Part shown: positions 7,655-64,000 of the stretch, one piece after another
Position numbering within the stretch: the first letter of the stretch is position 1
How the letters are laid out: each line of letters begins with the position of its first letter
Source: Schmidtea polychroa
Taxonomy: Eukaryota
NCBI GenBank assembly: GCA_044892525.1
Contig: CM097885.1
Coordinates: forward strand, 32,738,001-32,802,000
DNA: 64,000 nt
Direction: 5' to 3'
Notes under the pieces: model-generated
Told to the model about the DNA's origin: nothing
Databases searched by the model: none
The model's input: the letters and a program-made list of their open reading frames with translations, nothing else
Made by a program: the position numbers and the translations under genes

Positions 7655-8119
7655 ATGCTTTCAAATATAAATTACAGAGCAAAAGCTGATGTATCAAAAA
7701 TGGTATTTCCAATGGAGAAACCACAATAACTTATCAATAGAAGTAAAAAATATCCCATAATATATTTCAAAACTGGTAAATGTAGAATTATGGGGTGTAA
7801 GGAAATAATCAAAGCTAGTGAATATAATGTTTATGATTTAGAAATACAATCGATGACCGTAACTTCCGATATGGGTTTTTCTTGTAATTTAAATGAATTG
7901 GCTAAATTAATACCATGTGTTTACGAACCAGAATTATTTCCAGCTTTGAGATATATAAAATATAACCCTATGTGTGTAAATATATTCGCTAGTGGTAAGA
8001 TAGTAATTCTTGGAATAAAAAATATTGATTACAAATGTATAGTTGATAATATCATATCTGAAATTAAATCAATAATTGAAGGAAAAGAATTTTTAGATTT
8101 TTTATTATCACTTAATTAA
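7655..8119 (+). pseudogene. Divergent intronless TATA-binding-protein-like gene with one in-frame TAA
   Basis: Frame from ATG 7655 gives both TBP pseudo-repeats (IIYFKTGKCRIMG and VNIFASGKIVILG) plus YEPELFPAL; TAA at codon 25 (7727-7729); listed ORF 7790-8119 is the downstream part. Confidence 0.85.
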
Positions 8120-8241
8120 TTATTTAAAAAATCATGTGATTGCAAATTCGATGCAACTGAAATGCATGATTCTGATTGGTCGAAATCTAATTAGCTGAAG
8201 ATGTTTTGGGTTTAGTTTTCATTTATTAATTATCATTTACC

Positions 8242-8659
8242 ATGTACAATAATCAAAGTTCAGCTATAGCTGCCATGAAAGAACATGAACATAATGGTAA
8301 ATTTAAATTTTTTAATATTAATTGTATTTATCATATTATTATTATTTACAGATGAATATCATGCAATAATACTGGAAAGATTGTATTTTTATTACCCGCA
8401 ATTGTATGATATTCTCAAAGATCGAGATGTTGCAATAATCCCAGATTTAGTTTACAATGAAACCAGAATCTGGATTTTCGATATTATCAATACATTTCTC
8501 TGGGATGTGAAGATTGGAAGAACAATGAAGGAAGTGGAAGCAGAATACCCTTGCATTTTGGGATGTAGCTGTTGCAATTTCAGCTACCAGAGATATGTCG
8601 AATGGTCTTTGGTAAAGACACTTCGTAATTATCATTTTTGTCAAACTTTATCCAAATAA
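8242..8659 (+). CDS. Small spliced gene, unknown Cys-containing protein (exons 8242-8296, 8352-8659)
   Basis: 55-nt GTAAAT...TTACAG phase-1 intron (8297-8351) joins MYNNQSSAIAAMKEHEHN in frame to DEYHAIILERLY...CILGCSCC. Confidence 0.65.
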
Positions 8660-8725
8660 ATTTGTATGTTTAACTATTTGTTGTTTTATTTTTTTTTAGT
8701 AAATAGTAATAGAAATATAAATAAG

Positions 8726-8795
<70 letters not shown>

Positions 8796-8972
8796 TTAGT
8801 TTGAAAGTAATAAAAGCAATAATAATAATATGACACATATAAGATATGACAATGCAACATCAATGCATTTTGAATGTAATTAAAACAAAGACATACTGCA
8901 ATTTGATTGGTTTATAAACAATAGTCATAGGTATAAAAACCCTGTACCATTACAATTCAATCATAATTCACG

Positions 8973-9395
8973 ATGACCAAGAAAATATCAAGCACTGAAA
9001 AACCAAAGGTTGTTGTTGCAGAACTTGTACAACCTGTTCAAATGTTCCACAACTACAAAATGTATTTTTTAAAAGAAGAAATCAATATGAAATTGGTGTC
9101 ACCGATCAAGCTAATTTCTATTCAATTTCAATTCTTATCCGGCACACTTTCAATGATAGATGTTAAATCTATTGATGAGGTTTTCAAACGGTTGGATGCG
9201 AATCTCTCATGTAATCAACATGCATGGTTCAACAACCGATATTCAAGATTTTATGATTCCTTTGATGAAATCAGCTTTAAAGAAAACGAAAATTGGTATA
9301 TAACAATAGCAATCCAGGGATATAAAGTTGATAATAATGATGTGTATTCTCCAATTTGGAAAATTATGTCTGCTAGACTTTCACAGCTATTTTAA
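8973..9395 (+). CDS. 140-aa hypothetical protein, possibly viral OB-fold ssDNA-binding protein
   Basis: Intact ORF with TATA-like TATAAAA upstream and AATAAA at the stop; C-terminal YITIAIQGYKV...YSPIWKIMSARL resembles the terminal beta strands of DUF2738/gp2.5-type SSBs (by eye). Confidence 0.55.
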   Translation: MTKKISSTEKPKVVVAELVQPVQMFHNYKMYFLKEEINMKLVSPIKLISIQFQFLSGTLSMIDVKSIDEVFKRLDANLSCNQHAWFNNRYSRFYDSFDEISFKENENWYITIAIQGYKVDNNDVYSPIWKIMSARLSQLF

Positions 9396-9553
9396 TAAAT
9401 ATTGCTATATTTATTGTTTTTAATAAATGTCTTTGGTCCTATTTGTTTTTCATTTACTTAACCAGGAAATTGCAATATCAATGCAAAATACATGCAAACT
9501 TTTAAAAAGACATTCTATAAACAAACTTACATTATAGTTTTAAAGTGTTAATA

Positions 9554-9975
9554 ATGACGTTAGAAAAAGGTTAATATGGTTAGTTAATGATTGAATTATT
9601 TATTGTTTAGAACATTTAATCAACTTTTTGTTGGCAAAATTAGCAGAAATATCTGTTGTAAAAATGGAGGATATATTATCTATTTCAAATGCATTAAATA
9701 TAGACTGGGTAGCCGAGAGTGAAGATTCAAGATTTGATGAAACTGATGAGGAAATAACAGAACAAATTAATGAAGGAAACACACAAGAAGATGACGAGGA
9801 AATCATTCAAGAAATTGATGAACCTATTGATGAACCTAAGGAGGAATTTACGGATTATATAAGTGAAAATATTAAGTATACCGAACCGCGTGTATATAAC
9901 GATTGTATAGATCATATCGTTGAAAATGTTATGAAATGCGGAGATGATGAATGTGAATGTGTTAATAAATTTTAG
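9554..9975 (+). CDS. Small spliced acidic (D/E-rich) protein (exons 9554-9569, 9611-9975)
   Basis: 41-nt GT...TTTAG phase-1 intron joins MTLEK in frame to EHLINFLLAKLAE; the listed ORF has only a TTG start. Confidence 0.6.
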
Positions 9976-10017
9976 TTTGAGTGTATATTCAAAGTATAAT
10001 ATTTATAAATAACAACA

Positions 10018-10540
10018 TTAACTTTTATTTAAATATTTAAACATTACATATAATACAACAACTCCCAAGGCTAATCGCATATAACTTTTGACTTTTGCGT
10101 TGGCTTGCTCTATTTCTTGTGCGTTCTGGGCAAGTTCGACTAGTGTGTGCCATCCACCATTGGCATCGATCCATGGCGAAAACTTGGATTTGACTATCTA
10201 CAAATTAATATTAATAATAATAATAATAATAATTTACTTCTTGAGACCACAGATAATAATGGTCAACATCGTATAGACTTTTTTCTATAATAATCTTCAT
10301 ATAGGTAAAACCTATGATTATTCTGGTCCACTTCATTTGGTCGTCGAATAGACAGTCGAAAATCCTATTGAAATAAAATTTCTTCGTCTCCAGGCATTCT
10401 ATAACAAGCATGGTTTAGTAGTCGACATGGTTTCCCTCAATGATTTTCTCAGTTTGTTTAACTAGGAAACTGAGGCTTTGTGCGATATTCTCATTAACCA
10501 AACCTTTTAAGATGTTTTCTGCAAAATTTGATTTTGACAT
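10018..10540 (-). pseudogene. Bcl-2-family gene A (exons 10540-10238, 10197-10018; 160 aa; one premature TAA)
   Basis: BH1-like LFDDQMKWTRIIIGFTY, BH2 SPWIDANGGWHTLV, tail anchor MRLALGVVVLYVMFKYL; 40-nt GTAAAT...TTGTAG phase-0 intron; TAA at 10415-10417 is CAA in the left-arm copy. Confidence 0.85.
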
Positions 10541-10703
10541 TGTACAATAATTTTAAATATTCTGTTTTATTTATACTAATACTGGTTATGATTCTGATTG
10601 GTTAATATATTTATATGTAAAACATAAGAGATTTGATTTGATATTTATTGCTCCTTATCAATGTTTTCATATACAGACACACATAGATTATCTGCCCAAA
10701 AAA

Positions 10704-10760
<57 letters not shown>

Positions 10761-11157
10761 TTCATAAATTTTAATCAAATTACATGTATTTTCTTAAAAA
10801 TTTTTGATTTTACCCTTATTTATTGCCCTTTACACACATTCACTTTAGATCTCGCTTAGAAATATTTTTCTATCCTTAAGGTGTGTAATACAAAGACATA
10901 TGCAATACAAATGCATGAGTAACAAAGACATTTGCAAATGCATGTTTAACAAAGACATTTGCAAACGTAGTATTGAAACGTGTTTTGACTTTGAAAATTT
11001 TCTATAAAGTAATTCGTTAAATGGACTTAGAAAAATTTTAAAATTTTTAATTTTTGACCTCAATTTGACCTAAAAATTAGGGATAGGGGGGTTGACCTTA
11101 AAATTTTCTATGACCTTAACATTAGGGGTAGGGGGGTTGACCTTAAAATTTTCTATG
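10277..11157. repeat. Right arm of inverted repeat (partner 6740-7539)
   Basis: Reverse complement of the left arm, ending in TGACCTTAAAA array units. Confidence 0.95.
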
Positions 11158-11630
11158 CTATTGTTTATCATCAATCAACACGATTTAGTCCCTTTATACA
11201 CAAGTTTTCTTTATAAAATCAACTCAATTTAATAATATAATTTCTGTTGTTACTTTGCTGTCAAAAATATTTATTTATTTATCAAACTGGATAATTAATT
11301 GTGTAGTTTTTCAAAATTCATTAATTTGTATTTTTACGATTTCTCCTTTTAGGGTCCCCGATCAATTGGAAATTATTTGATACATGTTTGTTTTATTATG
11401 TGCAATCGATTTTCATTTCCCCCAAATTATATATTTATTGTTTTAATCGCAATTCAATCAATTAATTATTAATTAATTTACACAAATCTTACAAGTGTAT
11501 AAAAGAGATATTAAGGAAATAAAATATAAAATACAAATATTTCATTCGAGTTAGAAATTTGCGGAATAATTATTAAATCATTAAATTTATTGTTTAAATT
11601 TCCATTTATTCTTCATTACCATAAGTTCAC

Positions 11631-12596
11631 ATGATGGAAAATAAAGATATATTTGCAGATTCTAATGAAGATTTCTTCAAATACTTTGAAAAGACATTCG
11701 ATAAACATATGATGACTCCTGAATTACTGAAATGTGGATTCGAAGAAGCATTCTTGAAAACTCTTGCGAATGGAGCGAGGACTATGAAGCCATTCATCAT
11801 TTATATGCATGATTCTAATAACGACAATCATGAGATATTTTTCATGAAAAATGTTTGCAATGAAATCATTTGTGAATATCTTCTTGAAGAAAATTGGCCT
11901 ATTTGGCCTATAGATATTTCTGATATTAAAACAAAAAATGAATTTTTCAATTTAATTGATAGTCGATTATATACAAATAGAATGTTTTCATACAAATTAC
12001 CAATGTTGTTGATGTGTACCAAACAAGGAATATGTGAATTCATTCAAACATATATGTGTAGTGAGGATCCCATGATAATTGTTGGACAAATTTTCGATGC
12101 TGGGGGAGAATTCAAAATTGAAAAAGAATTGCAAATTTCAATTGCAAATTCTAGAAGAGATAAATCTCTTTTAATGAAAAAAAAGAAACAGGCTATATTA
12201 GAAAAAGAAAGAGAAAGTCAAATACTTCAACAAAATATCATGTTGGAAGAACAAAAAAGGATAGAAAGAGAAAATCAAAGATTGATCGAAGAATCAAATC
12301 GAAATAATCTTATTGAATTTGCAAAGAATCAAATTGTGGACGTTTCTCCTTCATCGAATAATTTCACGTTTAGAATACGTTTACCAAACCAACAGACAAT
12401 TGTGCGAGAATTCGGAGAATCACAAACTGTGAATGACTTACTCTACTTTATTGAATCGAATAATTATTTGAGATCGGAAGTCAAAGTTATGTTTTCTTAT
12501 CCGACCAGAAACATGTGCGAGATCGGTGACGTTTCGATCAAATTGAAAGATTCAGGAGCAAACAGACGAGAAGTCATCAACATTCTCAAGCTCTAG
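11631..12596 (+). CDS. FAF1/FAF2-like UAS-coiled-coil-UBX protein (p97/Cdc48 adaptor), intronless, no N-terminal UBA/UBL; copy 1
   Basis: UAS-like KPFIIYMH...VCNEIICEYL...WPIWPID; E/K/Q/R coiled coil; UBX FRIRLPN...VREF...TVNDL...YPTR. Confidence 0.9.
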   Translation: MMENKDIFADSNEDFFKYFEKTFDKHMMTPELLKCGFEEAFLKTLANGARTMKPFIIYMHDSNNDNHEIFFMKNVCNEIICEYLLEENWPIWPIDISDIKTKNEFFNLIDSRLYTNRMFSYKLPMLLMCTKQGICEFIQTYMCSEDPMIIVGQIFDAGGEFKIEKELQISIANSRRDKSLLMKKKKQAILEKERESQILQQNIMLEEQKRIERENQRLIEESNRNNLIEFAKNQIVDVSPSSNNFTFRIRLPNQQTIVREFGESQTVNDLLYFIESNNYLRSEVKVMFSYPTRNMCEIGDVSIKLKDSGANRREVINILKL

Positions 12597-13038
12597 TAAT
12601 GTTCATTTTCAATAATTGTTCGCAAATATTTTTCTTTGAAAGAAAAGCTTAACTATTATTCCCATTAATTAAGATTATAATTTATAAAACTTTACTTTTT
12701 CAAAATAATTTCCTTGAAATTTTGTTAATTTGTTATCATTAATTATGATTATAATTCAGTTTAAAATAAGTAGTTAGTGGCCTTGCTCCTTCTCTGGGGA
12801 AATCAGTGTCAATGTGTAACACTGATTATAGTGAGTGGGTATTATGGTCTTATGAGTACGGGGATATGAGCCCACTGGGCCAACTCCCCGGATGATTTTT
12901 GCTTTTTTCCTAAAAATTATTATTTTTATTTATTTTTAAAGAATTTTTATTTAATTTTTTATGTAAGTCAATCCAATTTAAAACAAAAAAAAAATATTAG
13001 AATAAAACAATATATTTTATAAAAACAATTTAAAACAA

Positions 13039-13368
13039 TTATTTACAAAACAATAATACAGTAATCAATACTCCGGTACCACATAATGTCAACTTTAAAA
13101 TATTGGTTAGAGTTTCTTCTGCTTTTCGTGCATCTTCATCGTTCTTGCGATGATCTTTTACCGTTTACCAATTTCCATTTTGATGAACCAATGAGCATAT
13201 TTTATTTCTAATAATCTAAAAATAATAATTAATATTATATAGATAATTGTTAAATCAATTACTTCGACTGACAATTTGAAATAATTCTGATAGAAAAAAT
13301 TGAGATTTGAAAGGAATCTGCTTCGTATACATTTAAGCCACTATGACGCATCTCCAGTTCATAACTGA
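13039..13368 (-). pseudogene. 3' half of Bcl-2-like gene B (truncated at tandem junction)
   Basis: Reverse complement of 32553-32881, with intron, WVHQNGNW motif and TM tail. Confidence 0.75.
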
Positions 13369-13394
13369 ATGATTTTCCGATTGCTGCGGAAAAG

Positions 13395-14468
13395 ATGTGC
13401 CCACCAAATTCTAAAGTTGAGAAGCTGATGCTCACGCATTGGCCGAAGAAGAACCATGTTCTTCATTGGCGACTTCTCAAGTTGTATATAGAATTGGGGG
13501 CTATTATTAAAAATGTACATAGAGCAATTATATTTAAGCATGCACCCATTTTTAAATCGTACATAGACAAAAACACTAATTTGAGAGCCAATTCTACATG
13601 CGAGCTGCAAAGAGATTTATATAAATTATTTAATAATAGTCTGTATGGGAAATCCGTGGAAAACCTTAAAAAACGGATGAATTTGAGGCTATGCAATTCA
13701 GCTGAAAAGATGATTGTATATGCTTCAAAACATACTTTCAGAAAATCTATCAAAATTGATGATGACTTGATAGCCGCCCATCTGGATAAAGATTCAATAT
13801 GTTTAGACAGGCCTAGCTATATTGGTCAAACAGTGTTAGATTTGTCTAAACTGAGGATGTATCAACTACAATATGTGGAATTGGCCAAGTACAGGTCTGA
13901 ATTTATTTGTGATATAAATATCGTTGCCGGTGACACTGACTCCTTTTTCTTAGAGATAAAGCATTGTAAGCTTGACACTCTTTTGCCGGCAATGATTCGT
14001 GACAATCTTTTAGATACTAGCAACTATGACCCAACACATCCCTTATACTTGAGAAACCTTGATTCTGTGATAAGGAAGTTTAAATGTGAAAGTAAAGGTC
14101 TCGGGTATAAGGAGTGGTTTTTCTTAAGACCCAAGTGCTATAGTTTGTTAGGGGCTAAAGATCATTTAAAAGCAAAGGGAGTCAAATTGATAGGGACAAA
14201 GATAGGGCACCAATCTTATTTAAACTGCTACAACAACAGCGTAGTATATACGGTGCCACAAACTAGAATAGGGACGCGTAACCACCAGCTTCTTACGTTT
14301 AAAAATACCAAGATTGCATTGTCAAACAACGATGACAAACGATTATGGGCGAGGAAAAATTTCAGTCTCGCATATGGACATTATTTAGGAGTCGATGTTC
14401 CAGATGTTGATCAAGTAATTTCAGAAATTCGTCTACTATTAGAAGGTCTAAGTCCAGATTTCAATTAG
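13395..14468 (+). pseudogene. polB: Protein-primed DNA polymerase B, C-terminal fragment (Polinton-type)
   Basis: Motifs KLFNNSLYGK, GDTDS, LRPKCY, KAKGV; lacks exonuclease and motif A because of the junction at 13365. Confidence 0.92.
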
Positions 14469-53578: not shown

Positions 53579-54699
53579 TAGATTATGCTGCCTTATTTCT
53601 GGTTCACGTACTCCCACAATAATTTTATCGGTATACACTTCTTCTGTATACGGTTCCAAAACTATGAGCCACCCGTTCACTAAATTGAACTTTAGTGACA
53701 TCAACCTCCAATACAATTTTAACTATATATCCTTTTAGAATTTCACAAGATTTAAATCGACGAGAATAAAAGGTTAATTTATTTGAGAAAAATTTGTAAT
53801 AATTGGTGGGTTACTGGTGGTTGATTAATTACGATTTTATGCTGTTACCAACGTAACCCAGAATACAACATTGTTTTCCACTTGGTACCCGTTGAGTAAT
53901 CAACGTTGGTACTGTACCAAGGGATTGAGTACTCGCAAAAAGTGAGCGCATCAAGGCACTATAATTGTCGAGTACTCTATGGGTTCACGGACTACCGTTA
54001 GAAGGTTTGTGTCCGATTTCCTCAGGTCCCTTATCAAAATTGTTTTCCCAACCTTACGCACAAACTCTCATTCCTCAGGCAAACATATAATAAAATATAT
54101 CGTGTATTATTTAATACTACCATAATATACAAAACACACTACAAAAATATACAAAACAAAATAAAGGTTCAAATCAGCTTGTTGGTAGGGCTGGTTTGTA
54201 ATGTGGTTCTAATTTAGAAAATTTTCATCTAAGTCATTTGGTATTAATAAAAATGAAGTAGTTATGATTGATATGCCTTTGCCTACTTTAATTGAATTTA
54301 TAAAGAAGTTGTATGTTTGAATTTTCGTTCGGGATTTCCGGGTCAGATTGCATAGTTGCTCATAAACCCTCACCCATATCCTCCGGTGACTTGAATCATG
54401 GTAATATTTTCCTAGGAGGGGGGGTGTTACTAAAAATCACTTTCAAAAAGTTTTGATCCTTCTGATTGGATCAGGGGGTTAACTCTAATTTTAACTTTTT
54501 AGAGAAATCTCTAAATCGATATTGGATTTATTTTTGTAATTAATAATTACTGATGAATAATAACAATATATAATTAGTATTTATAGGTTTAATAATATAT
54601 TCCTCAATGACTGAAGATATATATACAATATCTATAACTAAATTACATGCACTAAGTACAATATTGATAATAATAATTAAGCTATACATAACCAATAAT

Positions 54700-54838
<139 letters not shown>

Positions 54839-57294
54839 GAGCAATACTGCTAATAATGATGATAATGATTAATTGTAAATCTTTATAATTTACTTTTATA
54901 CCTGTTTGAAAATTATATAAGTATTTATAGTTAATATTTAGGGGTATGTCATATACAACTAAATATAATTTATAATTTTATGTTTTACAATTTATACTTT
55001 TATATTTTATACTTTATAATTTTATATTTTATAATTTATGATTCTATATTCTACAATTTATAATTTTATATTTTATAAAATATAATTTTATATTTTATGA
55101 TTTATAATTTTATAGTCGACTTGATATACCTCTTTATAGTTTCCCTTTTATGATCAATACTGTTTTCCAGATTACTTACAGATTTCTTGGTACTATTTGT
55201 GAGTTATAATTTCAGAGTTATAGTGCATCTATAGTCTATATATAACTAGTTCTAAGTTGACTGACTTTTTGTACTAAAATTTATTTACTACCATTACTGA
55301 TCTATAATTTATAATCCGAATTTCTCCATTACTAATTTATATTTTTAGGATCAATATAATTTGTACCTACAATACCATAATGGTTTATAACTTGTAGCCT
55401 TATAATTAACAAAAAAAAATATTACAACTAAGTGCTTATATATTTATAAATATTTTAAGCGGGAATCCGTAATTTAATCTTTTGGATTTAGAATATCTAC
55501 ATTTACATTGAATTAATTCCAAGACCTATCTAGATTAAGTTATACTTATACGTATGCCGAATATCTTTCTCATTTCCATTACTTTATCATAAACTCCTAT
55601 TACAAAAATCTAATTCGGCATATGTCTAAGCATAACTGAAATTACTATTACTGATCAACCAGCTACATTAATGTGATTGCAGAATTGTGTAAGTTTAGGT
55701 ATGAGTTCTACTCAAATTATGACCTTAGTGTAGAGTTGTTGTCCATGATTTTTAATGTTGATTTTTATTGCATAATACGTAAAAGGTCGGGAAGAATTAT
55801 TGCTTTCGTAGCCCCACTGGGACCACTAGGACAAACCTTAATGTTGTATAGTAAGTCAACCATTTACGGCTGACCCTTAATAAATACGAAGAGTCAGACG
55901 GAGGGTTTGCTCGACTTAACTCCATGGCAGGACCATGAAGTGGTTCGACCTCCGAAGGACCCAAACAAAAAGAACCATATAATATGATATCAATATAATA
56001 GCGATAATGCATGTCTGCATGCCATCTTATAAAAGTTTAACTAAATTGGATGCAGGACTGAACAGCGACGCAGGAATACCAGTACGCCGCGGATCACTCG
56101 TACATCACTCGAAAATTTTCAAAAAACAAAATGCAAAACCACTTTAATTTTAACATAAATAAATCATTGATAGATATATAATACAAAAACAAATTTAATC
56201 ATTAGTACTCACTATTTACGTTGAAAAAATCTTGATCAAAATTTGGCATAAAGGGATTAAACTGTGACCGAAACGTGTCGGTATATATACCTATTTTTGT
56301 GTGTGCAAGTACACGTATATGTGTTGATGCATTAAAACATACTCGAATTCTTTTTATTCTAGAATTTTCTATTTTGCGATTTTGATATTTTTAATGGCAA
56401 TTTTTGTGCCATAATTTTTGTTTTTATTTTTAAATTATTTTTCGTTAATTTTACGTCCATGATGGATTTGGAACGGTTCCAGAACATTCCATGTTAATTT
56501 TAATTTTATTTTAACTGATGTTTCATGAATTTCTTTTTAAGATTTTTTATTTTTATTACTAACTTATTTATTTTATTATTCTAGATGGCTTTTGTGATGG
56601 TCATCGCCATTTTTATGGAATGTTCCGGGTTTTTCTGGAATTTTTTACTGTTTTTACCGTCTTTTAAGTTATTCGAGTCTGTTTTTGTAACTCTATGTTT
56701 ATTTGGTTATTTTTGAGTTCGATTTTGCATAACTTCTTGCTTTTGGTATAATTTTATTTAATTTCTGTGTTTATTTTTTGTTATTTTCTCCTTTAATTAC
56801 CATTGTTTATTCGGTGTATTTTTAATATTTAACTATACTTTTTGCTTTTTGCATGTTATGTACCTACACCTTTCAGTCACAATTAGAAGTTTGGGTCTAG
56901 AAATCAGTTCTAGCCCAACATAAAACACTCGGGGGCCCATAAAATTGCGACCCGCAATTTAAATCAGAAGATGAATAAGATTATTTTTCAGAATACTTGC
57001 ACTATATTACAAGTGCCTACATGCAAATTGGGTCCACGAGCTACAGGGTCGTGACCTCAATACCCAATACCTCAAAACTGTCTCTACTATTACACTACAT
57101 TTTACAGATGGGTTGAAAGATGAAGAAAAAGAACGACCGAGGTCGGTCCACATAAAATTAAATTATCATGCTCAGTTTCAAGAATCAATGTTATTAATCA
57201 TAATCAGTCTCAGTCCTTGAAATCACAATTGTTTGATCAGAATGATTTATTGTTTTATATTGTTACGAAATGTTTATACTGTCGTGTTGTCACA

Positions 57295-58287
57295 TTAATA
57301 GAATTCGGTTGTTCGGGATCTCGTCTCGATGACGGCTCTGGTTTCAATGTTTGGGGAAGATTTGAAGTATCTTGGTTGGTTCGTGGTTTGGACTAGCTGT
57401 TCTTCCATTGGGATACGAATACTTCGTGATTGTTCTTTTAGTTTGAGGGTTTTGTTTCTTTCTTTACTGGAATTGGGTTTGAGTGCAATCAGGCTCAGTA
57501 TGGTGATGTTTACCATTAGGCTTGCCGCTAATAGGATTAATATTGTGAGGGGTTCAGACTCTCTTGGTTCTATTACTTTGGGTTTGTTCATAGTTTCTCT
57601 CAATTGGGTTATATCTGCAATTTCCGATTTTTCGGGTTTGTTGAGTTTGTTTTCTTCCGAGGTGACAACTTTCTTTATTTCCTCTAGGGTTTTAATCATC
57701 TTCTCGGAGTTCATCGGGTTTTTGTTTATGGTAGTTAGGATTTCTCTTGTCATTTCTTTCAAGGTTATCGTTACTTCATTTTTATTGTTGGGTTCTTCTT
57801 TGATGATGGAAGTTATTTTTCCTTTCATTTCCTCTAAAGATTTCACTACCATTTCGCAATTGCTTGAACGTCCATTTGCGGCTGTTATTACTTGTTGTTT
57901 TATTTCCTCTAATGTTTTTACCATCATTCTAATTTGGGTTGCGGCTGGATCTGTTTGGGATTCTCTCTTTGATTTCTGGCTTTGACATTGTTTGGCTAAT
58001 GTCGCTATCTGGATTCTGATAACTTTCATTTCTTGTTCCAAGCTTGTTTTTATTGTCTGAGCCATTTGCACTTCCATCGAATTTTCTGTTGTTTGTGGAC
58101 ATTGCGAACATTGCAACTTGATTTGTTCGCATTCCGCATTGGGGTTTTCGCAGATCGATTTAAAGCTACTACATGTGCTATCTTCTCTTCGATATGGGTA
58201 TTCTTTCTGGCATCTGATCATTGATTCCTCAGCTTGCAGGATTCTTAGCATTATCATTATAATCATCACCACAATTAGGCTTCTCAT
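57295..58287 (-). CDS. Type I membrane protein, TNF-receptor-like (signal peptide, one Cys-rich domain, helical repeats, TM, tail with PMEE)
   Basis: N-terminal hydrophobic MRSLIVVMIIMIMLRILQA; six Cys in CQKEYPY...CSSFKSIC...C...CSQC; four ~24-aa KTLEEIK-type repeats; TM LTILILLAASLMVNITILSLIAL. Confidence 0.7.
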   Translation of the reverse strand: MRSLIVVMIIMIMLRILQAEESMIRCQKEYPYRREDSTCSSFKSICENPNAECEQIKLQCSQCPQTTENSMEVQMAQTIKTSLEQEMKVIRIQIATLAKQCQSQKSKRESQTDPAATQIRMMVKTLEEIKQQVITAANGRSSNCEMVVKSLEEMKGKITSIIKEEPNNKNEVTITLKEMTREILTTINKNPMNSEKMIKTLEEIKKVVTSEENKLNKPEKSEIADITQLRETMNKPKVIEPRESEPLTILILLAASLMVNITILSLIALKPNSSKERNKTLKLKEQSRSIRIPMEEQLVQTTNQPRYFKSSPNIETRAVIETRSRTTEFY

Positions 58288-58363
58288 CTTTACATATACA
58301 TATACGTTAGTAATAATTACTTGGCTTTATTTACAATTTATTTACACGGTTATTTTGTCTCAT

Positions 58364-59131
58364 TTATTGGGAGTCACCGACCTCATCCCTTAATTTTACG
58401 GGAGGTTCGGGTGCTCGCGTTTTACTCAATTCGTTCATTCTTATTACTTCGAGTTGCGTTGCTACCAATTGTTTCTTTAATTCTGGTATTTCTTGTAGTT
58501 GCTTCTCTTTACTTTTCCATTTTCTCTGCTTGATGGTCATTGTCGTCTGCAGTGTTTGCATGCTTCGTCGTTTTTGATTTAAAATTCTCTGGTAATTTTC
58601 CTTCAACTTCCATTGTTTTTCTGTTTCCTCTCTTTGTTCCTTGATCTCTTCCTTGAGTTTTACCTTTCTATTCTCGACTTTTTTACTTTCTCGCATTCTC
58701 GTTTTTGCATAAGCATATTGTGCTTCTAACTGTTCGATATAAACTTGGTCGATATTCACAATCTTTTTCAACTTCCTTGTTTCTGATTTCCAATAGTCTT
58801 CGATTACTGCCTGAGCTCTCAACTCTACTATCTCCTGTCTCAGGTTTTTATTTTCCGTCTCTTTTCGTCTCGATTCATTTGTTTCCCTCAAAATTTCCTG
58901 CTTGACAGTGTTTATAAATCGTCTTGATTGAACAACTTGCTGTCTCAATCTCGTAATCTCTACATTTTGATTTGCAATCTTTGTTTTGAACAAATTCTTG
59001 CTGACTCTCCATTTATTACTATAATATTTCATCGGTTCTTGTTTGGTTGGTATCGTATTCTGGCTTTGTTCAGGTTGGTCGTTTGACCTTCTTTCGTTAC
59101 TCGTGGATTCTCTTTCTTTTAAATAATTCAT
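58364..59131 (-). CDS. Coiled-coil protein (255 aa from ATG 59131)
   Basis: Intact E/K/Q/R-rich ORF; first ATG at 59131, just after an AG acceptor. Confidence 0.75.
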   Translation of the reverse strand: MNYLKERESTSNERRSNDQPEQSQNTIPTKQEPMKYYSNKWRVSKNLFKTKIANQNVEITRLRQQVVQSRRFINTVKQEILRETNESRRKETENKNLRQEIVELRAQAVIEDYWKSETRKLKKIVNIDQVYIEQLEAQYAYAKTRMRESKKVENRKVKLKEEIKEQREETEKQWKLKENYQRILNQKRRSMQTLQTTMTIKQRKWKSKEKQLQEIPELKKQLVATQLEVIRMNELSKTRAPEPPVKLRDEVGDSQ

Positions 59132-59223
59132 ATCTACAAAAATATACACATCATATTTCCTTTCGTCTTCTTTTTATTTTGAATTTTTTTTTATTCTTAT
59201 TTACAGTCAACATCTCTCTTCGA

Positions 59224-60819
59224 CTAAATCCATGTTGCGTTAGTTTGTTCGTCATTTTCTTCGAAGCCTTCATCTGTTGCGACTTTGGCAGGCTGTGGCA
59301 CTTGCAACGGGAACGGGTAGAGCGGCATTAATAATATTGGTGGTTGTCTCCTTAACCGATCTACTTCCTCCCGCAATTCCGTTGAGATGTTTATTTCTTC
59401 ATCCAACAAAAACGTTAATCTACTTTCGTTTTCTATCATTTCGTCCAATTCCTCTTCCAATCGTTGGGTCCTTTCAAGCGTTTTCAACTTCTCGATTTCT
59501 GCTCTCAGATTCGCTTCATTTTCTTCGAAGCATCGTTTTATTATCTCGGTTTCTTGTTTGGCTTGTTGAATTGCCTTATCGCACTCCTCTCTACATTTCG
59601 CGTTAAGCTCAAGCTGATGTTTCCAATTCACATCCCTTTGGGTGTACATACCTTTATGTCCGTTCATCTCTTGATTGGCTTCCTCCACTTCTGTTTGTAA
59701 TTGTCGGATCTGCCGATCTTGGTCGGTCAATTGTTTTTCCCATCTCTTTTCCTGGTATTCATACCTTCTTATCTCTCGAGTCTGTTTCTTTATGACTCTC
59801 CGTCTACCGTCGCTGGTCCGCGTCTTGATTCTATGTTCTCTACTTAATCGGCTAATCTCTTCCCTTTGGTTTTCTATCATTTCCCACATTTTAAATTTGT
59901 CTCTTTCCATCAGTTTCATTGGCAATTGTCTTAACTCCTCTTTGGTCTCTTTCCAATTCTTTTTCCATTTTCGGGCTTGATGCTTGAGACACCTTTCGAT
60001 TTCCTCAAATTTCTGTTGTCGTTTTCTCCACTCTACTTCTTCTTCTCGATGTGTAGCCCTTGTTTCGTAAAATTCTTGGTCTGCTTTTCGTAATCTCAGT
60101 TGTTCCTTGCTACTGATTTTCTAATAAAGCACTTGAGTTTGGCTTCCTAGATATTTATACTTCCATTTCTGAGCTTGTGTTTTTATTTGTTTGTTAATTC
60201 GCTCTAGTACATTATCTTTAACGATTGGTTCTTTATGCTGTGTTTTCCTCCCTTGCCCTCTGACTTCGTTTAGGGTCTTTTTGCATCTTTCCCATTTTTC
60301 TTTCATCATTGAGCATTTGCCCTTTACTTCCTCTAGTTCTGCCTTATAGCCTCGTATTTGATATTCGTGACTATTGTTCTGCCTCGTTTGGAGTGTTTCG
60401 TATTTTCGCTTCCATTGTTGCGCTTGTAGTTTTATTCGTTCCGTTTTACGCTGCTCCTCCTCGTATTGCTCCCTTGCTTCTCTAAGTTGTTCTTTTTGCA
60501 TTATTATCTCTCCACATCACCCAACTATCTCCATGATCCGCTGAGTTCGTAAATTCGAGAGCTCTTCCTCCAATTCTTGGTATGTTGAGGTATTTCTCAC
60601 ATCTTCGGTTAATTCCTCTACCTGTTTCATCCACTTCTCTTTTGTTGCTAGCGCTTCCGCCTTCTCCACTTCTAACTCTTGTTGCTTTTTCTCATACATG
60701 GTTTTGTACATTTTTATTTCTCTCTTTACTCTTTCTGCTTCGTAGGCTTGTATGATGGATTTGTACTGTTCGAGTTGTTGCATCTCGGTTTCCACATAGG
60801 TTTGTGATTCTTTATTCAT
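59224..60819 (-). pseudogene. Long coiled-coil protein (~531 codons) broken by two in-frame stops
   Basis: ORFs 60517-60819, 60121-60501 and 59224-59925 share one frame, open except TGA 60517-60519 and TAG 60121-60123; Pro-rich C-terminus. Confidence 0.8.
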
Positions 60820-60901
60820 TGTCTAAATAATTACACTATTACTACTACTATTATTTCATACATTTATTATCTACACTTTATACACGGAGTTTTAATTTTT
60901 G

Positions 60902-62080
60902 TTATTGATCGGCGTAGCGAAATCCTTTGATTCGCTGCGCAATCCTTTGTCTACACATTGGACATTACTTTACTTTTCTACTACACGTGGCACATGCGAT
61001 CAAATGTCCTCATGGCATATGAATAACTTCTACGCTCATCTCCCAACACATAGTACGTTTGATATCTCGCAAGATAGCTGCTTTGACCATTGATTCTTCT
61101 TTTATTTTTGTTTCTGGTTTTTCTCTATACTGGGTTATCGCTCTGATCATATCGTACGTTGTTGTTGGTATATGTACGTTTTTCTGTAGTCTCTCTCTAA
61201 TCATTTTCTTTGCTCTTGTCGTGCCTATTCCGGCTGATTTTAACGCTCTGCACATGTTAGGCTTGTCTACAACTTCGTCAACCTCTTCTTCTGTTACTAG
61301 TACTTCTGGATACTCGGTTTCTTGTTCGTTGTGATATAGGCACCATGCTTGATGTCTAATTTCTAGTATGCCTTCTTCCGGTAATCTCTGTTGGCTTTCG
61401 CATCTTTCACACTTGAATATTTGCTTTTCTGTTAGATAGAACCCTCTTATTGCTAGTTCAGGTCCTCTCGTATCATCTCCGAACGTTTTCATTCTGTTAT
61501 CTGCTATTTGCGTGAGGAATTCACCTTCACAAGTTGGGACATATTCATCAACGATTCTGGTTATCGCGATTGTCATTTTCCCTCCTTTTTCGTCTTCAGT
61601 TTTCAATCTCTCCAAGGCTTCGTATTTTATTTCCGGTTTGTTGTGTACATCAAATCCCATTACGAATGGACAAGTTGGAAATCGTTTACGATGTTCTTCC
61701 TTTGGGTGTTCTCCTTTTTTCCATTCTGCTAATTTCCCATTACAGAAGCGACATGTTACTTGATCAGGTATCTCTGGTTTTCCGGTGAAGAAAAATCCGT
61801 TGAGTGCCAGCGCTCGGCTCTGTTCCTTGGTGAAAATGGTCTGGTGTTCAAATGACAGGTATCTCTGGTTCTCACATCTGAATTGCTCATTACTCCCCTG
61901 CTTCAAATTTCCATGTACTAAACTATAATCATTTCCCATTCTTCGATAATACGCGAAACCACTTGGTTTTGTTTCGCTGACTTCCGCATCTCTCACTCTT
62001 TCTCTAGATGGCGTATCGTCCTCTCCCTCTCTCATTGTGATCGTTTTCTTTCGGATATTCGGTCTTTCTTGATTAATCAT
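60902..62080 (-). pseudogene. Inhibitor-of-apoptosis protein (BIR, degenerate BIR, C-terminal RING with two stops); 356-aa BIR part still open
   Basis: BIR RYLSF...LALNGFFFTG...DQVTCRFCNGKLAEWKKGEHPKEEHRKRFPTCPFV; past TGA 61010 the frame reads GHLIACATCSRKVK*CPMCRQRI, an IAP-type RING. Confidence 0.92.
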
Positions 62081-62222
62081 CTATAATAAATTTCATCATT
62101 TCTTTTTGCATTTTTTCTTTTTCTAGTTTTTATGGTTTTGGTGAGTTACTTTACTTTATACAATAACTTTATAATTACTTTACATCGTTTTTACAAAATA
62201 TTTACAATTTCCCTCCATCCGC

Positions 62223-63646
62223 CTATCGTATTTCTATTGTTAGTCCTTCCTCCGCTAGTTCGATTAGGAAGAATATAGTGTCCTTGTCTATGTAGGAACC
62301 TTCATTGAACTGATATAGCTGTATAAACTCTCCTGCTCCTACCGCGGTATTAACCTCTGTAGTTGGTTTGTTCCATGCTGGACTTAATGCTCGACAGTAT
62401 GTTATGTGTGTCCGTTCTCTTCCTAAGAGAGATATTTATAATTTATGTCGAAATGGCCAGACTATTAGGTCATCGAAGTCTCCTTTACAGATTTGCATAA
62501 ATAAGGACATGTACCGATCTTTAAAATTTCCCTCGCCATTTGGAAACCATCTCAATTTCATCTTGTATCCATGTTTCTTGACGTAGAATGGTTTGCTCAC
62601 TATCGTTGTCTGGGTTCCTTGCTTTGCTCGCTCCATTATTTCTGCTATCCCTTGAATTTTCCACATGTATGGTAATATTGGTAGTTCCTCTGTTGTCAGT
62701 TCCCTTCCAGCCCATTTGGTTTGTAGTTTAGTTACTTCGACTAGTTTGTCGTCTAACTTCAACATTCTTTGTATTACGGCTTCTCTCGTAGTTTCGAAGC
62801 TTTCCTGTGAACTCAGCATTTCTTTTATCATGATTTTATGTGATTTGAGTTCGTCTTTGACGTCTTCGACTGCCCTTGCCGTTAACTCTATTGCTCTCAT
62901 CATCTTTTGCATGTGCTCTAATGTATTCTCTTCCACATGTTTCTTCATTTCTTCTGCTGGTAATTGTACTTTACAATCGAATGTCACCATTGGGCATTTT
63001 ATCGCTTTTCTCGTTCATATCTCCCAATGCTCTTTTAGTCTGACGTTGTTAATTTCTCCACACTCGTTTGGGCATCCCCTGTGTATTCATCGCAAATCCG
63101 TCTTTCTACTGCGTTTCGATGTTCTATTTCGATCTCTCTCCAATTAGCAGTTTCTCCGCAAAATTCACATTTCTCCGTTCGCACTTCGCATTCTTTTTTA
63201 TGTTTGGTTTTCTCTTTTCGTAAAAGCTTTACCGTACATGCTTCGCATTCCAATTCTAAATATTCGCATACGTCTGTATGGGCTCTTAACTCCTTTACTC
63301 GACCTGTCCATTCGCATGACCTTTGAGGACATCTTATTTTCACTTCTCTGATTTCTCGGTTCATTGCTCTATCCAATATCGTACCAGTGGGAACCAACTT
63401 AAATGCTTCTCCACACCCTGGACAAGTTTCTCGCTTTAGCTTGGCTAATCTTATATCACACTCTCGGCACAATCTACAACCGCATCGAGTTTGACTTGCT
63501 CCAATTAATAATCTTCTACATGCTGTATCGGCACATAATAGTCTTTCTTCGAACTCATCCGGCTTGGCTTGATATTTTCTCATCAACTCATAGTTAATCT
63601 TTTGTTCCTCTGCTTCTCTCCGGTTTTCTTCCGCTTTGTTTTGCAT
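62223..63646 (-). pseudogene. TRAF-family protein (RING, TRAF zinc fingers, coiled coil, MATH), intronless; one frameshift and two stops
   Basis: RING C...QTRCGCRLCREC...CPGC; DRAMNREI...CEWTGRVKELRAH; frameshift at the G run ~63078; MATH YMWKI...SKPFY...GYKMKLRWFPNG...SLFMQICKGDFDDLIVWPF, continuing past TAA 62436 to WNKPTTEVN...YIDKDTIFF. Confidence 0.95.
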
Positions 63647-63735
63647 TCTACAATGATAACTTTTTAATCTTGGAATTCTACTTGGTTATAACTCTATTTA
63701 TTTACAAGATTATTTACATTTTACTCCTTTCTCTC

Positions 63736-64000
63736 CTATACATCTACCGTCGAGTCCGCTTCTCCAGTTCCTGGTAGCCCGGTCATCCACTCGACTAAAC
63801 TGGCAATATCGTCATGTTGTCGATTTTCATGCAACCTTCTAATTTCTTCCGCTTGCCATCTGATTTGGCTTATTAACTGATTGTTATTATATTCTAGTTG
63901 CGCGATTATTTGGTGTTGTTCCTCTATTTTTGTAATGTATATTGCATTTCTATTAATACTCTCTATCAACGCCGTTTGATTTCGTACCCAATGTTCTTGA
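63736..64000 (-). CDS. 3' end of a coiled-coil-like ORF entering from beyond the window
   Basis: Frame appears open to the window edge; same strand and spacer style as the cassette. Confidence 0.55.
   Translation of the reverse strand, partial: QEHWVRNQTALIESINRNAIYITKIEEQHQIIAQLEYNNNQLISQIRWQAEEIRRLHENRQHDDIASLVEWMTGLPGTGEADSTVDV

Follow-up and report, generated by a model that had tools for sequence, protein, structure and literature searches.

Architecture of the locus

The region studied lies in a window of 64,000 nucleotides of Schmidtea polychroa DNA. It is the cassette of accessory genes in the 3′ part of a giant gypsy element of the Burro type, of which hundreds of copies are present. 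Read along the minus strand, the cassette comprises the 3′ part of an accessory ORF A (63736..64000; 151 aa, no Pfam match, start beyond the window end), a TRAF-like ORF with zf-TRAF and MATH domains (62223..63646), an IAP-like ORF with BIR and RING matches in Pfam (60902..62080), the coiled-coil ORFs CC1 (59224..60819) and CC2 (58364..59131, 255 aa), and a last accessory ORF of 330 aa (57295..58287) whose N-terminus and one other stretch are hydrophobic as judged by eye. In this copy the TRAF-like frame carries a frameshift and a premature stop, the IAP-like frame premature stops and CC1 two in-frame stops; in sister copies these ORFs encode 474, 392 and 532 aa, respectively. BCL2-like, Ubi2/SUMO-like and dUTPase-like motifs gave no Pfam match at E 0.001. 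The cassette is followed by a 3′ LTR remnant (minus strand, 53790..56920), which aligns with the 4.8-kb LTR of a young sister copy over its first 1.4 kb and its last 0.3 kb but not in between. The copy in the window is 5′-truncated and devoid of gag.

Burro/GYPSM1 elements are giant gypsy-like LTR retrotransposons of planarians, longer than 30 kb, with long LTRs and BIR, TRAF and coiled-coil accessory genes (PMC6431247). As judged from length, LTRs, domain order and accessory genes, the element is of this type. In sister copies, paired LTRs of ca. 4.8 kb each are found ca. 30 kb apart, in keeping with the >30 kb and multi-kb LTRs of Burro, and the polyprotein is a single open frame of 4,791 codons with the Pfam order zf-CCHC, MATH, Monjiviricetes_fusion, protease, RT, RH, IN and Ank. 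Shared with Burro/GYPSM1 are one polyprotein of ca. 4,800 aa with a zinc knuckle, MATH, an in-frame env before the protease, RT, RH, IN and ankyrin repeats, and the BIR, TRAF and coiled-coil accessory genes; the likeness is one of architecture. Searches with the BIR, MATH and env families were each dominated by single families. No cassette was found at loci L090–L099, and an Rfam search of L041, L043 and L062 gave no match. Of the 77 candidate frames lying outside the element, 53 were compared with Pfam (14–41 kb repeats omitted); only TBP, DNA polB and two sub-cutoff matches were returned, hence no recognisable spliced host gene. The statement of the earlier note that most predicted introns of the window have GTAAAT as their donor was accordingly not confirmed.

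Three lineages of the element were compared, whose cassette proteins are 29–71% identical; the BIR ORF is missing from lineages r1 and r4. Because r1 and r4 are related (28–71%), the 16 spacers available correspond to about 11 independent ones. Except for 38 nt shared by r1 and r4, the LTRs of the three lineages are not alignable, and no conserved leader donor was therefore found. A supposed polypurine tract and LTR start were dropped, the real LTR starting with TGTTGG without such a tract.

A motif at a fixed distance behind the stop codons

The five minus-strand spacers of the window each contain a short motif. As stated in the earlier note, exact TGTAAATA occurs six times in four of them: in spacer A-TRAF (63647..63735, 89 nt) at 63711..63718 and, 30 nt after the stop, at 63699..63706; in TRAF-IAP (62081..62222, 142 nt) at 62206–62199; in CC1-CC2 (59132..59223, 92 nt) at 59205–59198; and in CC2-last ORF (58288..58363, 76 nt) at 58346–58339 and, at +29, at 58335–58328. 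The fifth spacer, IAP-CC1 (60820..60901, 82 nt), has the variant TGTAGATA at 60875–60868. Sites start at the higher coordinate, the positions given earlier being their 3′ ends. Elsewhere within 57000–64000 exact TGTAAATA is found on neither strand. Both the motif and the acceptor described below also occur in a sixth spacer, which follows the pol stop (L001 339–192) and lies immediately beyond the window.

With a degenerate fifth position (TGTANATA), the window spacers hold seven sites versus 0.52 expected from 5000 dinucleotide shuffles (P=0.0002), and all 16 spacers of the three lineages are occupied, with 26 sites versus 2.1 in shuffles and two or three sites in seven spacers. In the count in spacers against ORFs and background, which the earlier note had called for, two sense sites were found in 56.8 kb of ORF, and the spacer density of 12.6 per kb compares with a background of 0.24–0.39 per kb per strand. 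The sites are strongly strand-biased (26 sense versus 2 antisense), and when the motif letters are rearranged, none of the 139 other orders exceeds a count of 7, the highest reached. Position 5 is occupied by A (14), T (9), C (2) or G (1) and is swapped between homologous sites of r1 and r4. T is required at position 1 (4 non-T variants observed, 4.1 expected), and variants at positions 6 and 8 are not clearly enriched. TGTA alone is enriched. So is TGTA-N-A-(A/C/G)-A (12 versus 3.4 expected), and the actual motif may therefore be less strict than that of Pumilio. An explanation by chance in an AT-rich genome, which these counts refute, or by a CFIm-type UGUA element upstream of poly(A) sites is extremely improbable. 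The enrichment of TGTA itself and the background frequency of TGTANATA fit these two explanations, but the spacer density and the weight of positions 6 and 8 do not; moreover, planarian poly(A) signals are reported to lack an upstream UGUA, and CFIm59/68 was not found (PMC5068929).

The strongest feature, overlooked in the earlier note, is that the motif keeps a fixed distance to the stop codon. First sites in the window start 18, 17, 27, 19 and 18 nt after the stop, in spacer order, and 14 of the 16 spacers have theirs at 14–27 nt. The standard deviation of the first-site position is 3.4 nt measured from the stop versus 53 nt measured to the next ATG, a result reached in 0 of 100000 random placements. 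In the CC1-CC2 spacer of r1 and r4 the site lies at +155 and +158, adjoining the acceptor. Only one of 134 other ORF stops is followed by a site at +12 to +30; it belongs to a compact relative. Of five compact env-bearing relatives, only one has the exact site in this interval after the pol stop.

This geometry bears on a DNA-level explanation, according to which the motif is a TATA-like (TGTAWAWA) or forkhead (RYAAAYA) site providing an internal promoter for each accessory gene. Only position 2 differs from TATAWAWR, position-7 A variants are enriched (10 versus 2.8 expected) and so is the forkhead pattern (22 versus 12.6). However, the anchor is the upstream stop and not the downstream ATG, the motif is strand-specific, 12 of the 26 sites misfit forkhead and genuine TATA boxes show no enrichment (17 versus 12.4), which makes this explanation very unlikely.

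Tight anchoring to the stop also recalls the stability element of Rous sarcoma virus, which shields a stop from nonsense-mediated decay. Accordingly, Pumilio or another UGUA-binding protein on the motif might guard stops that precede a long downstream region. It would fit that two of three lineages lack the site behind their last ORF, where only a short 3′ UTR follows, and that the looser TGTANANA is enriched; in a young sister copy, no TGTANATA occurs in the 839 nt after the last-ORF stop, and in r1 a site lies 55 nt after the last ORF. A shielding role nevertheless appears rather unlikely to us, since the motif exactly matches the consensus of a known repressor, extra sites lie far from stops, and the site is absent after the upstream RING ORF despite its very long downstream region.

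Conservation among copies, a further check proposed earlier, was assessed in 30 copies of the family to which the window belongs. Motif columns differ by 0.66% versus 4.2% for other spacer columns. Variants shared between copies affect 2 of 64 motif columns versus 64 of 545 others (P=0.033; 0.073 without C columns; 30 copies). The IAP-CC1 site is identical in 30 of 30 copies, the motif of the CC2-last ORF spacer is kept although its flanks are unalignable, and in spacer A-TRAF the motif and acceptor blocks are invariant among five aligned copies from three lineages.

Acceptor-like sites and RNA evidence

As claimed, the ATGs at 63646, 62080, 60819, 59131 and 58287 are preceded by an AG at a distance of 1, 0, 3, 2 and 0 nt, respectively, the first of these AGs being 63648..63649. 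An AG 0–6 nt before the ATG is present in all 16 spacers versus 6.7 expected (P<0.001), where in four the ATG behind the AG was taken over an upstream in-frame ATG. Twelve have YAG versus 2.5 expected (P<0.001) and the remaining four AAG, TAG and CAG being exchanged between copies. The preceding run is T-rich (77 of 160 T versus 45 expected, P<0.001), while the branch-point pattern TRAY is not significant (11 of 16 versus 7.9, P=0.10).

No run recorded as RNA was listed for the stretch, and the RNA data consist of assembled contigs of five presumed-RNA runs, which drop rare forms. The part of the LTR holding canonical-looking donors (LTR positions 2931 and 3082) was outside this comparison, and leader joints would be visible only as loose ends. 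No GT..AG splice joint at the spacers is among the joints listed, and presumed-RNA contigs cross three of the five window spacers unspliced and ungapped; unbroken passage through the acceptors argues against abundant splicing in those samples. In the DNA run X6 no GT..AG deletion at spacers is among the joints listed. The suggestion that a common leader or SL RNA is spliced to each ORF has the acceptor signal in its favour, but no spliced or leader-bearing contig is among those listed. The earlier note had regarded the lack of such reads, together with a lack of motif enrichment and conservation in other copies, as speaking against its readings; the listed contigs include none of this kind, but the motif is enriched and conserved.

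A different view was that T/GTAAAT (the slash marking the junction) is a 5′ splice donor, the spacer being an intron or the ORF an internal exon that is spliced to a last exon common to all, with a junction <50 nt from the stop. The distance between site and stop does agree with the 50-nt rule of nonsense-mediated decay, and the would-be introns, 47–142 nt long in the family of the window, are in line with the 57-nt mode of planarian introns (PMC4978528). The donor-like character ascribed to TGTAAATA could not be upheld, though: T is fixed at −1, and the donor types are not enriched (GGTAA 1 versus 4.6 expected, GTRAG 2 versus 4.9). Homologous sites read GTATAT, GTACAT or GTAGAT, and the three legible donors of the host Pumilio gene (a tiny sample of three introns) are G/GTAAAA, C/GTAAGT and A/GTAAGT. 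The proposed intercistronic intron, bringing stop and start close for reinitiation, is likewise not supported, with TGTATATA in relatives, would-be introns of only 28, 41 and 13 nt in r1 and r4, and unspliced contigs. We consider a donor function improbable. The free fifth position, the required T at position 1 and the lack of donor-type enrichment instead fit the Pumilio element UGUANAUA.

Alternatively, the cassette might be processed like an operon, with cleavage and polyadenylation in each spacer and addition of an SL RNA at the next AG, every mRNA then ending within its own spacer and for that reason needing its own sites. This would explain sites in every spacer beyond the last UTR and is compatible with Pumilio binding, differing in how the mRNAs arise. 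In its co-directional ORFs, separated by ca. 100 nt and each with an acceptor ahead of its ATG, the cassette resembles SL-resolved operons of flatworms and nematodes, and the spacers of 57–218 nt are comparable to Macrostomum operon gaps of ca. 100 nt (PMC8629364) and to the planarian median 3′ UTR of 176 nt (PMC5068929). Such operons, however, consist of host genes, whereas the cassette belongs to a mobile element. Of the 16 spacers, 13 contain AATAAA, but its counts do not rise above shuffles (7 versus 6.7, 7 versus 5.7 and 5 versus 5.5). The only poly(A) loose ends among those listed, a weak hint, map to LTR positions ca. 350–390 (run X5) and none to spacers, and no SL-like loose end is listed. 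Operon-like processing is accordingly doubtful.

A predicted Pumilio element as part of a spacer module

The reading of the motif as the canonical Pumilio/PUF element, also raised in the earlier note, gained most from the analysis. TGTA-N-ATA with a free fifth base recurs across deep lineages, specific to the sense strand and stop-anchored, and the 26 sites agree with the UGUANAUA consensus with its degenerate position 5, for which an effect of site clustering and a link to CCR4-NOT are described (PMC11182014). The host Pumilio gene (G000:C4:75.195–75.209 Mb) encodes the recognition motifs SRFIQ, NYVIQ, CRVIQ, NHVVQ, CRVIQ, NYVIQ, SNVVE and NYVIQ, all eight matching PUM1/2 and fly Pum, which gives the host protein the canonical code. 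Exact consensus, free fifth base, AU-rich context and multiple sites per spacer likewise correspond to a Pumilio response element. Host elements lie anywhere in 3′ UTRs (PMC11182014, PMC5855632), whereas in this polycistronic mobile element nearly all stops are followed by one at a distance of 14–27 nt. The predicted unpaired probability is 0.41 for the sites versus 0.58 for other spacer bases, the sites lying outside ORFs on the sense strand. Among the three readings proposed, a predicted Pumilio element is the best supported, leader splicing appears plausible and an intercistronic intron unlikely.

On these sequence grounds we rather favour, with some reserve, that each spacer is a two-part module, consisting of UGUANAUA behind the stop, likely bound by Pumilio, and a U-rich AG before the ATG, likely a 3′ splice site. 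A 5′ leader, coming either from the 5′ end of the element itself or from an SL RNA, would be spliced to one acceptor and thereby make that ORF the first cistron. The site would then stand at the start of the 3′ UTR of that mRNA, just clear of the terminating ribosome. Pumilio, which planarian stem cells express, might recruit CCR4-NOT and damp or time the production of each accessory protein (TRAF, IAP, coiled-coil). In the unspliced genomic RNA the cassette would form a single long 3′ UTR that holds about eight sites. As to the sign of the effect, the data fit repression and protection alike.

Splicing of one leader to many acceptors is a strategy of complex retroviruses, foamy viruses and the late genes of adenovirus. 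The cassette shares with them one acceptor directly before each accessory ORF, the leader donor being putative here; we know of no Pumilio module per gene in complex retroviruses, foamy virus or adenovirus. The long noncoding RNA NORAD acts as a Pumilio decoy and resembles the element in having many Pumilio sites (predicted here) on one abundant RNA, and the Rous sarcoma virus RNA stability element in having a protein-binding element (predicted here) directly behind a stop codon. To our knowledge, neither unites the two features in a module that recurs at gene junctions. With a Pumilio site and an acceptor at every junction, the anti-apoptotic and signalling cargo might come under the stem-cell regulator Pumilio, and the genomic RNA, with at least eight sites per molecule and hundreds of copies, might act as a NORAD-like sink or be routed by Pumilio into granules for packaging; this we put forward as a tentative possibility.

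Implications

In the Burro review (PMC6431247, section 7), accessory-ORF expression and spacer signals go unmentioned. The literature searched, which excludes the 2026 Burro1 paper (Lee et al.), contains no description of the spacer module that we found, nor does it address the expression of the six genes behind the pol stop of the 30-kb element. Burro1 is reported to aid planarian stem-cell survival via its IAP (Lee et al. 2026, cited in PMC13465017); DjPum is present in neoblasts, and Pumilio is essential for planarian stem cells (PMC5855632). The spacer module bears on two points, the expression of genes behind the pol stop and Pumilio control in stem cells. If true, this would be one of few cases in which a mobile element repeats the same unit of host post-transcriptional control at each of its cistrons.

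The element carrying the spacers

Read on the minus strand, the last 10 kb of the window belong to an LTR element, of which they form the 3′ end; the element runs on for 10.4 kb past the window before breaking off. In the 781-Mb genome, a family search yielded 325 candidate places, and the 40 scored are, the window itself apart, 93–96% identical. Young sister copies contain paired LTRs (~4.8 kb each) ~30 kb apart, a frame of 4,791 codons and, in the order found by Pfam, zinc knuckle, MATH, viral fusion glycoprotein, protease, RT, RNase H, integrase and ankyrin domains. The large frame is followed by a cassette of six ORFs, namely A (151 aa), TRAF (474 aa), IAP (392 aa), CC1 (532 aa), CC2 (255–261 aa) and a last ORF (328 aa); the copy in the window has stops or frameshifts interrupting TRAF, IAP, CC1 and pol. 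Planarian Burro/GYPSM1 elements share this layout (PMC6431247, section 7), by which the window element is classified as Burro/GYPSM1-type, an already known type; the layout also suggests a planarian host.

Two further giant lineages, r1 and r4, served for comparison. For the A, TRAF and CC1 proteins, identity is 29–33% to the window's family and 66–71% between r1 and r4 (RT core 92.5%). The last ORF and the CC2 end have diverged much more rapidly than the rest of the cassette (r1 and r4 share 28% identity over 74 aa), while the motif described below is kept (loci L113–L115, r4). After the 5′ LTR, a primer-binding-like sequence, which resembles a tRNA-Pro site, is nearly identical in all three lineages (locus L043, 2080–2100; r1, r4), while the LTRs are unalignable. 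Upstream of the truncation point, the window extension (76.4–80.9 and 86.7–88.7 kb) contains pieces of an unrelated gypsy element and a DNA transposase-like frame of 648 codons. Tandem and inverted blocks, 99% identical, at window positions 7730–14468 with repeats to about 44760 hold four copies of FAF1/UBX-like ORFs, a TBP-like ORF and fragments of protein-primed DNA polymerase B, and resemble a Polinton-like element that has captured genes.

A stop-anchored motif

All motif and AG positions that the earlier note had reported for the spacers between consecutive cassette ORFs were found in place. The motif TGTANATA, degenerate at its fifth base, is present in all five window spacers (7 sites versus 0.52 in shuffles), and a sixth spacer outside the window contains both the motif and an acceptor-like AG. 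Across 16 spacers (6+5+5; window's family, r1 and r4) it occurs 26 times versus 2.1 expected and in every spacer, whereas other orderings of these letters reach 7 at most; five further r1-type copies show the same pattern. The count of spacers against ORFs proposed in the earlier note confirmed this enrichment, as only 2 sense sites are found in 56.8 kb of ORF; antisense sites in the 16 spacers also number 2. The fifth base is A in 14, T in 9, C in 2 and G in 1 of the 26 sites, and A and T are exchanged between homologous sites of r1 and r4.

Measured from the stop, the first site begins between +14 and +27 in 14 of the 16 spacers, with a standard deviation of 3.4 nt versus 53 nt when measured to the next ATG, an anchoring reproduced by random placement in 0 of 100,000 trials. 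The lack of sites before +14 is weakly significant (P=0.025; P=0.075 on 11 spacers of two lineages). Exceptions are the CC1–CC2 spacers of r1 and r4, where the site adjoins the acceptor; these spacers, lacking a stop-proximal site, carry a short GGGA...TCCC inverted repeat with variable loop ~30 nt after the stop (L062, 5075–5088; L112–L116; r4). Among 134 other ORF stops from the fetched DNA, a lenient control including many fragment ends, one has a site at +12 to +30 and belongs to a compact relative; this relative is also the only one of five compact env-bearing lineages with an exact site behind pol, another showing a near miss.

The suggested conservation check likewise supported the motif: across 30 copies belonging to the window's family, its columns differ from the reference copy by 0.66% versus 4.2% for other spacer columns, the codon positions differing by 2.6–2.7% (first/second) and 7.3% (third). 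Because the copies are related, columns with shared variants provide the fairer count (2/64 versus 64/545; P=0.033, or 0.073 without C columns). When five A–TRAF spacers are aligned, both the motif and the acceptor fall in blocks without variation. The CC1–CC2 spacer contains a poly(A) run varying in length between near-identical copies (L041, 5296–5385; sister copies).

Acceptor-like AGs before each ATG

An AG is found ≤6 nt before the ATG in 16/16 spacers (6.7 expected), the ATG behind the AG having been chosen despite an upstream in-frame ATG in four of them (those preceding CC2 in each of the three lineages and the last ORF in r1). It is a YAG in 12/16 (2.5 expected), TAG and CAG alternating between copies, and follows a T-rich run (77/160 versus 45) in otherwise A-rich spacers; branch-point enrichment was not significant in the 16 spacers. 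Each junction carries a two-signal module, under constraint, stop-anchored and on the sense strand. As the CC2 acceptor and start spell TGTAGATA (window 59138–59131), and TGTACATA, TGTAAATA or TGTATATA stand 7–17 nt before two acceptors in r1 and r4, some of the motif sites may share bases with splice signals. Two canonical-looking donors, G|GTAAGC, at L043 positions 241 and 392 (LTR positions 2931 and 3082) precede two LTR-internal ORFs with T-rich acceptors.

Splice donor or Pumilio element

5′ splice donors tend to have G at −1 and GTRAG. The earlier note's proposal of intercistronic introns with the motif as donor is made unlikely by a required T at −1 (other bases 4 versus 4.1 expected), by the scarcity of donor-type strings in the spacers (GGTAA 1 versus 4.6 expected; GTRAG 2 versus 4.9) and by would-be introns of 28, 41 and 13 nt in r1 and r4; those of the window's family fit the planarian mode of 57 nt (PMC4978528). 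As to the GTAAAT donors which the earlier note ascribes to most predicted introns of the window, no recognisable spliced host gene was detected there among the candidate frames scanned with Pfam.

The alternative Pumilio reading is upheld at the level of sequence: the motif matches the consensus UGUANAUA (PMC11182014), and the host genome encodes a Pumilio protein with eight recognition motifs that agree with those of solved human, mouse and fly proteins, the spacer sites thereby being predicted Pumilio elements. DjPum is expressed in neoblasts and needed by them (PMC5855632). Position-7 variants are also enriched (12 versus 3.4) and pairing is predicted to be higher at the sites than around them, both of which count against a strict Pumilio reading. 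A CFIm element fits poorly, since UGUA is reportedly lacking ahead of poly(A) signals in planarians (PMC5068929). A Pumilio exon is present in two additional, partial copies in this genome (G000:C4, 88412964 and 88553481).

RNA evidence

Two stretches, with the candidate leader region outside both, were compared with assembled contigs of five runs guessed to be RNA. The A–TRAF and IAP–CC1 spacers are bridged ungapped by contigs from three studies and the CC2–last ORF spacer in one run; no GT..AG joint is among the joints listed for the five runs. Provided that the runs are RNA, this shows these spacers to be read through unspliced; rare spliced forms may exist as well. Among the poly(A) loose ends listed, all are in the LTR (run X5), ~350–390 nt into it and near several AATAAA (L041, 7966–8005), possibly marking where the cassette is polyadenylated, well before the LTR end.

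Proposed mechanism

In the proposed scenario, splicing to each acceptor would render each ORF translatable, and Pumilio would bind behind the stop, just outside the path of the ribosome, whose shadow is put at ~15 nt by microRNA work, and damp the mRNA via CCR4-NOT. A purely distal repressor could work from a single group of sites placed behind the last ORF; the presence of own sites in every spacer therefore suggests either that they serve internal 3′ ends or that they act stop-proximally, the two main rivals. Listings of literature on Burro, planarians and Pumilio contained no description of these spacer signals, and PMC8532177 treats Burro expression without splicing; transcript structure may be treated in Lee et al. 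2026 and Grohme et al. 2018. The spacer signals are real and constrained, and their component parts are known.
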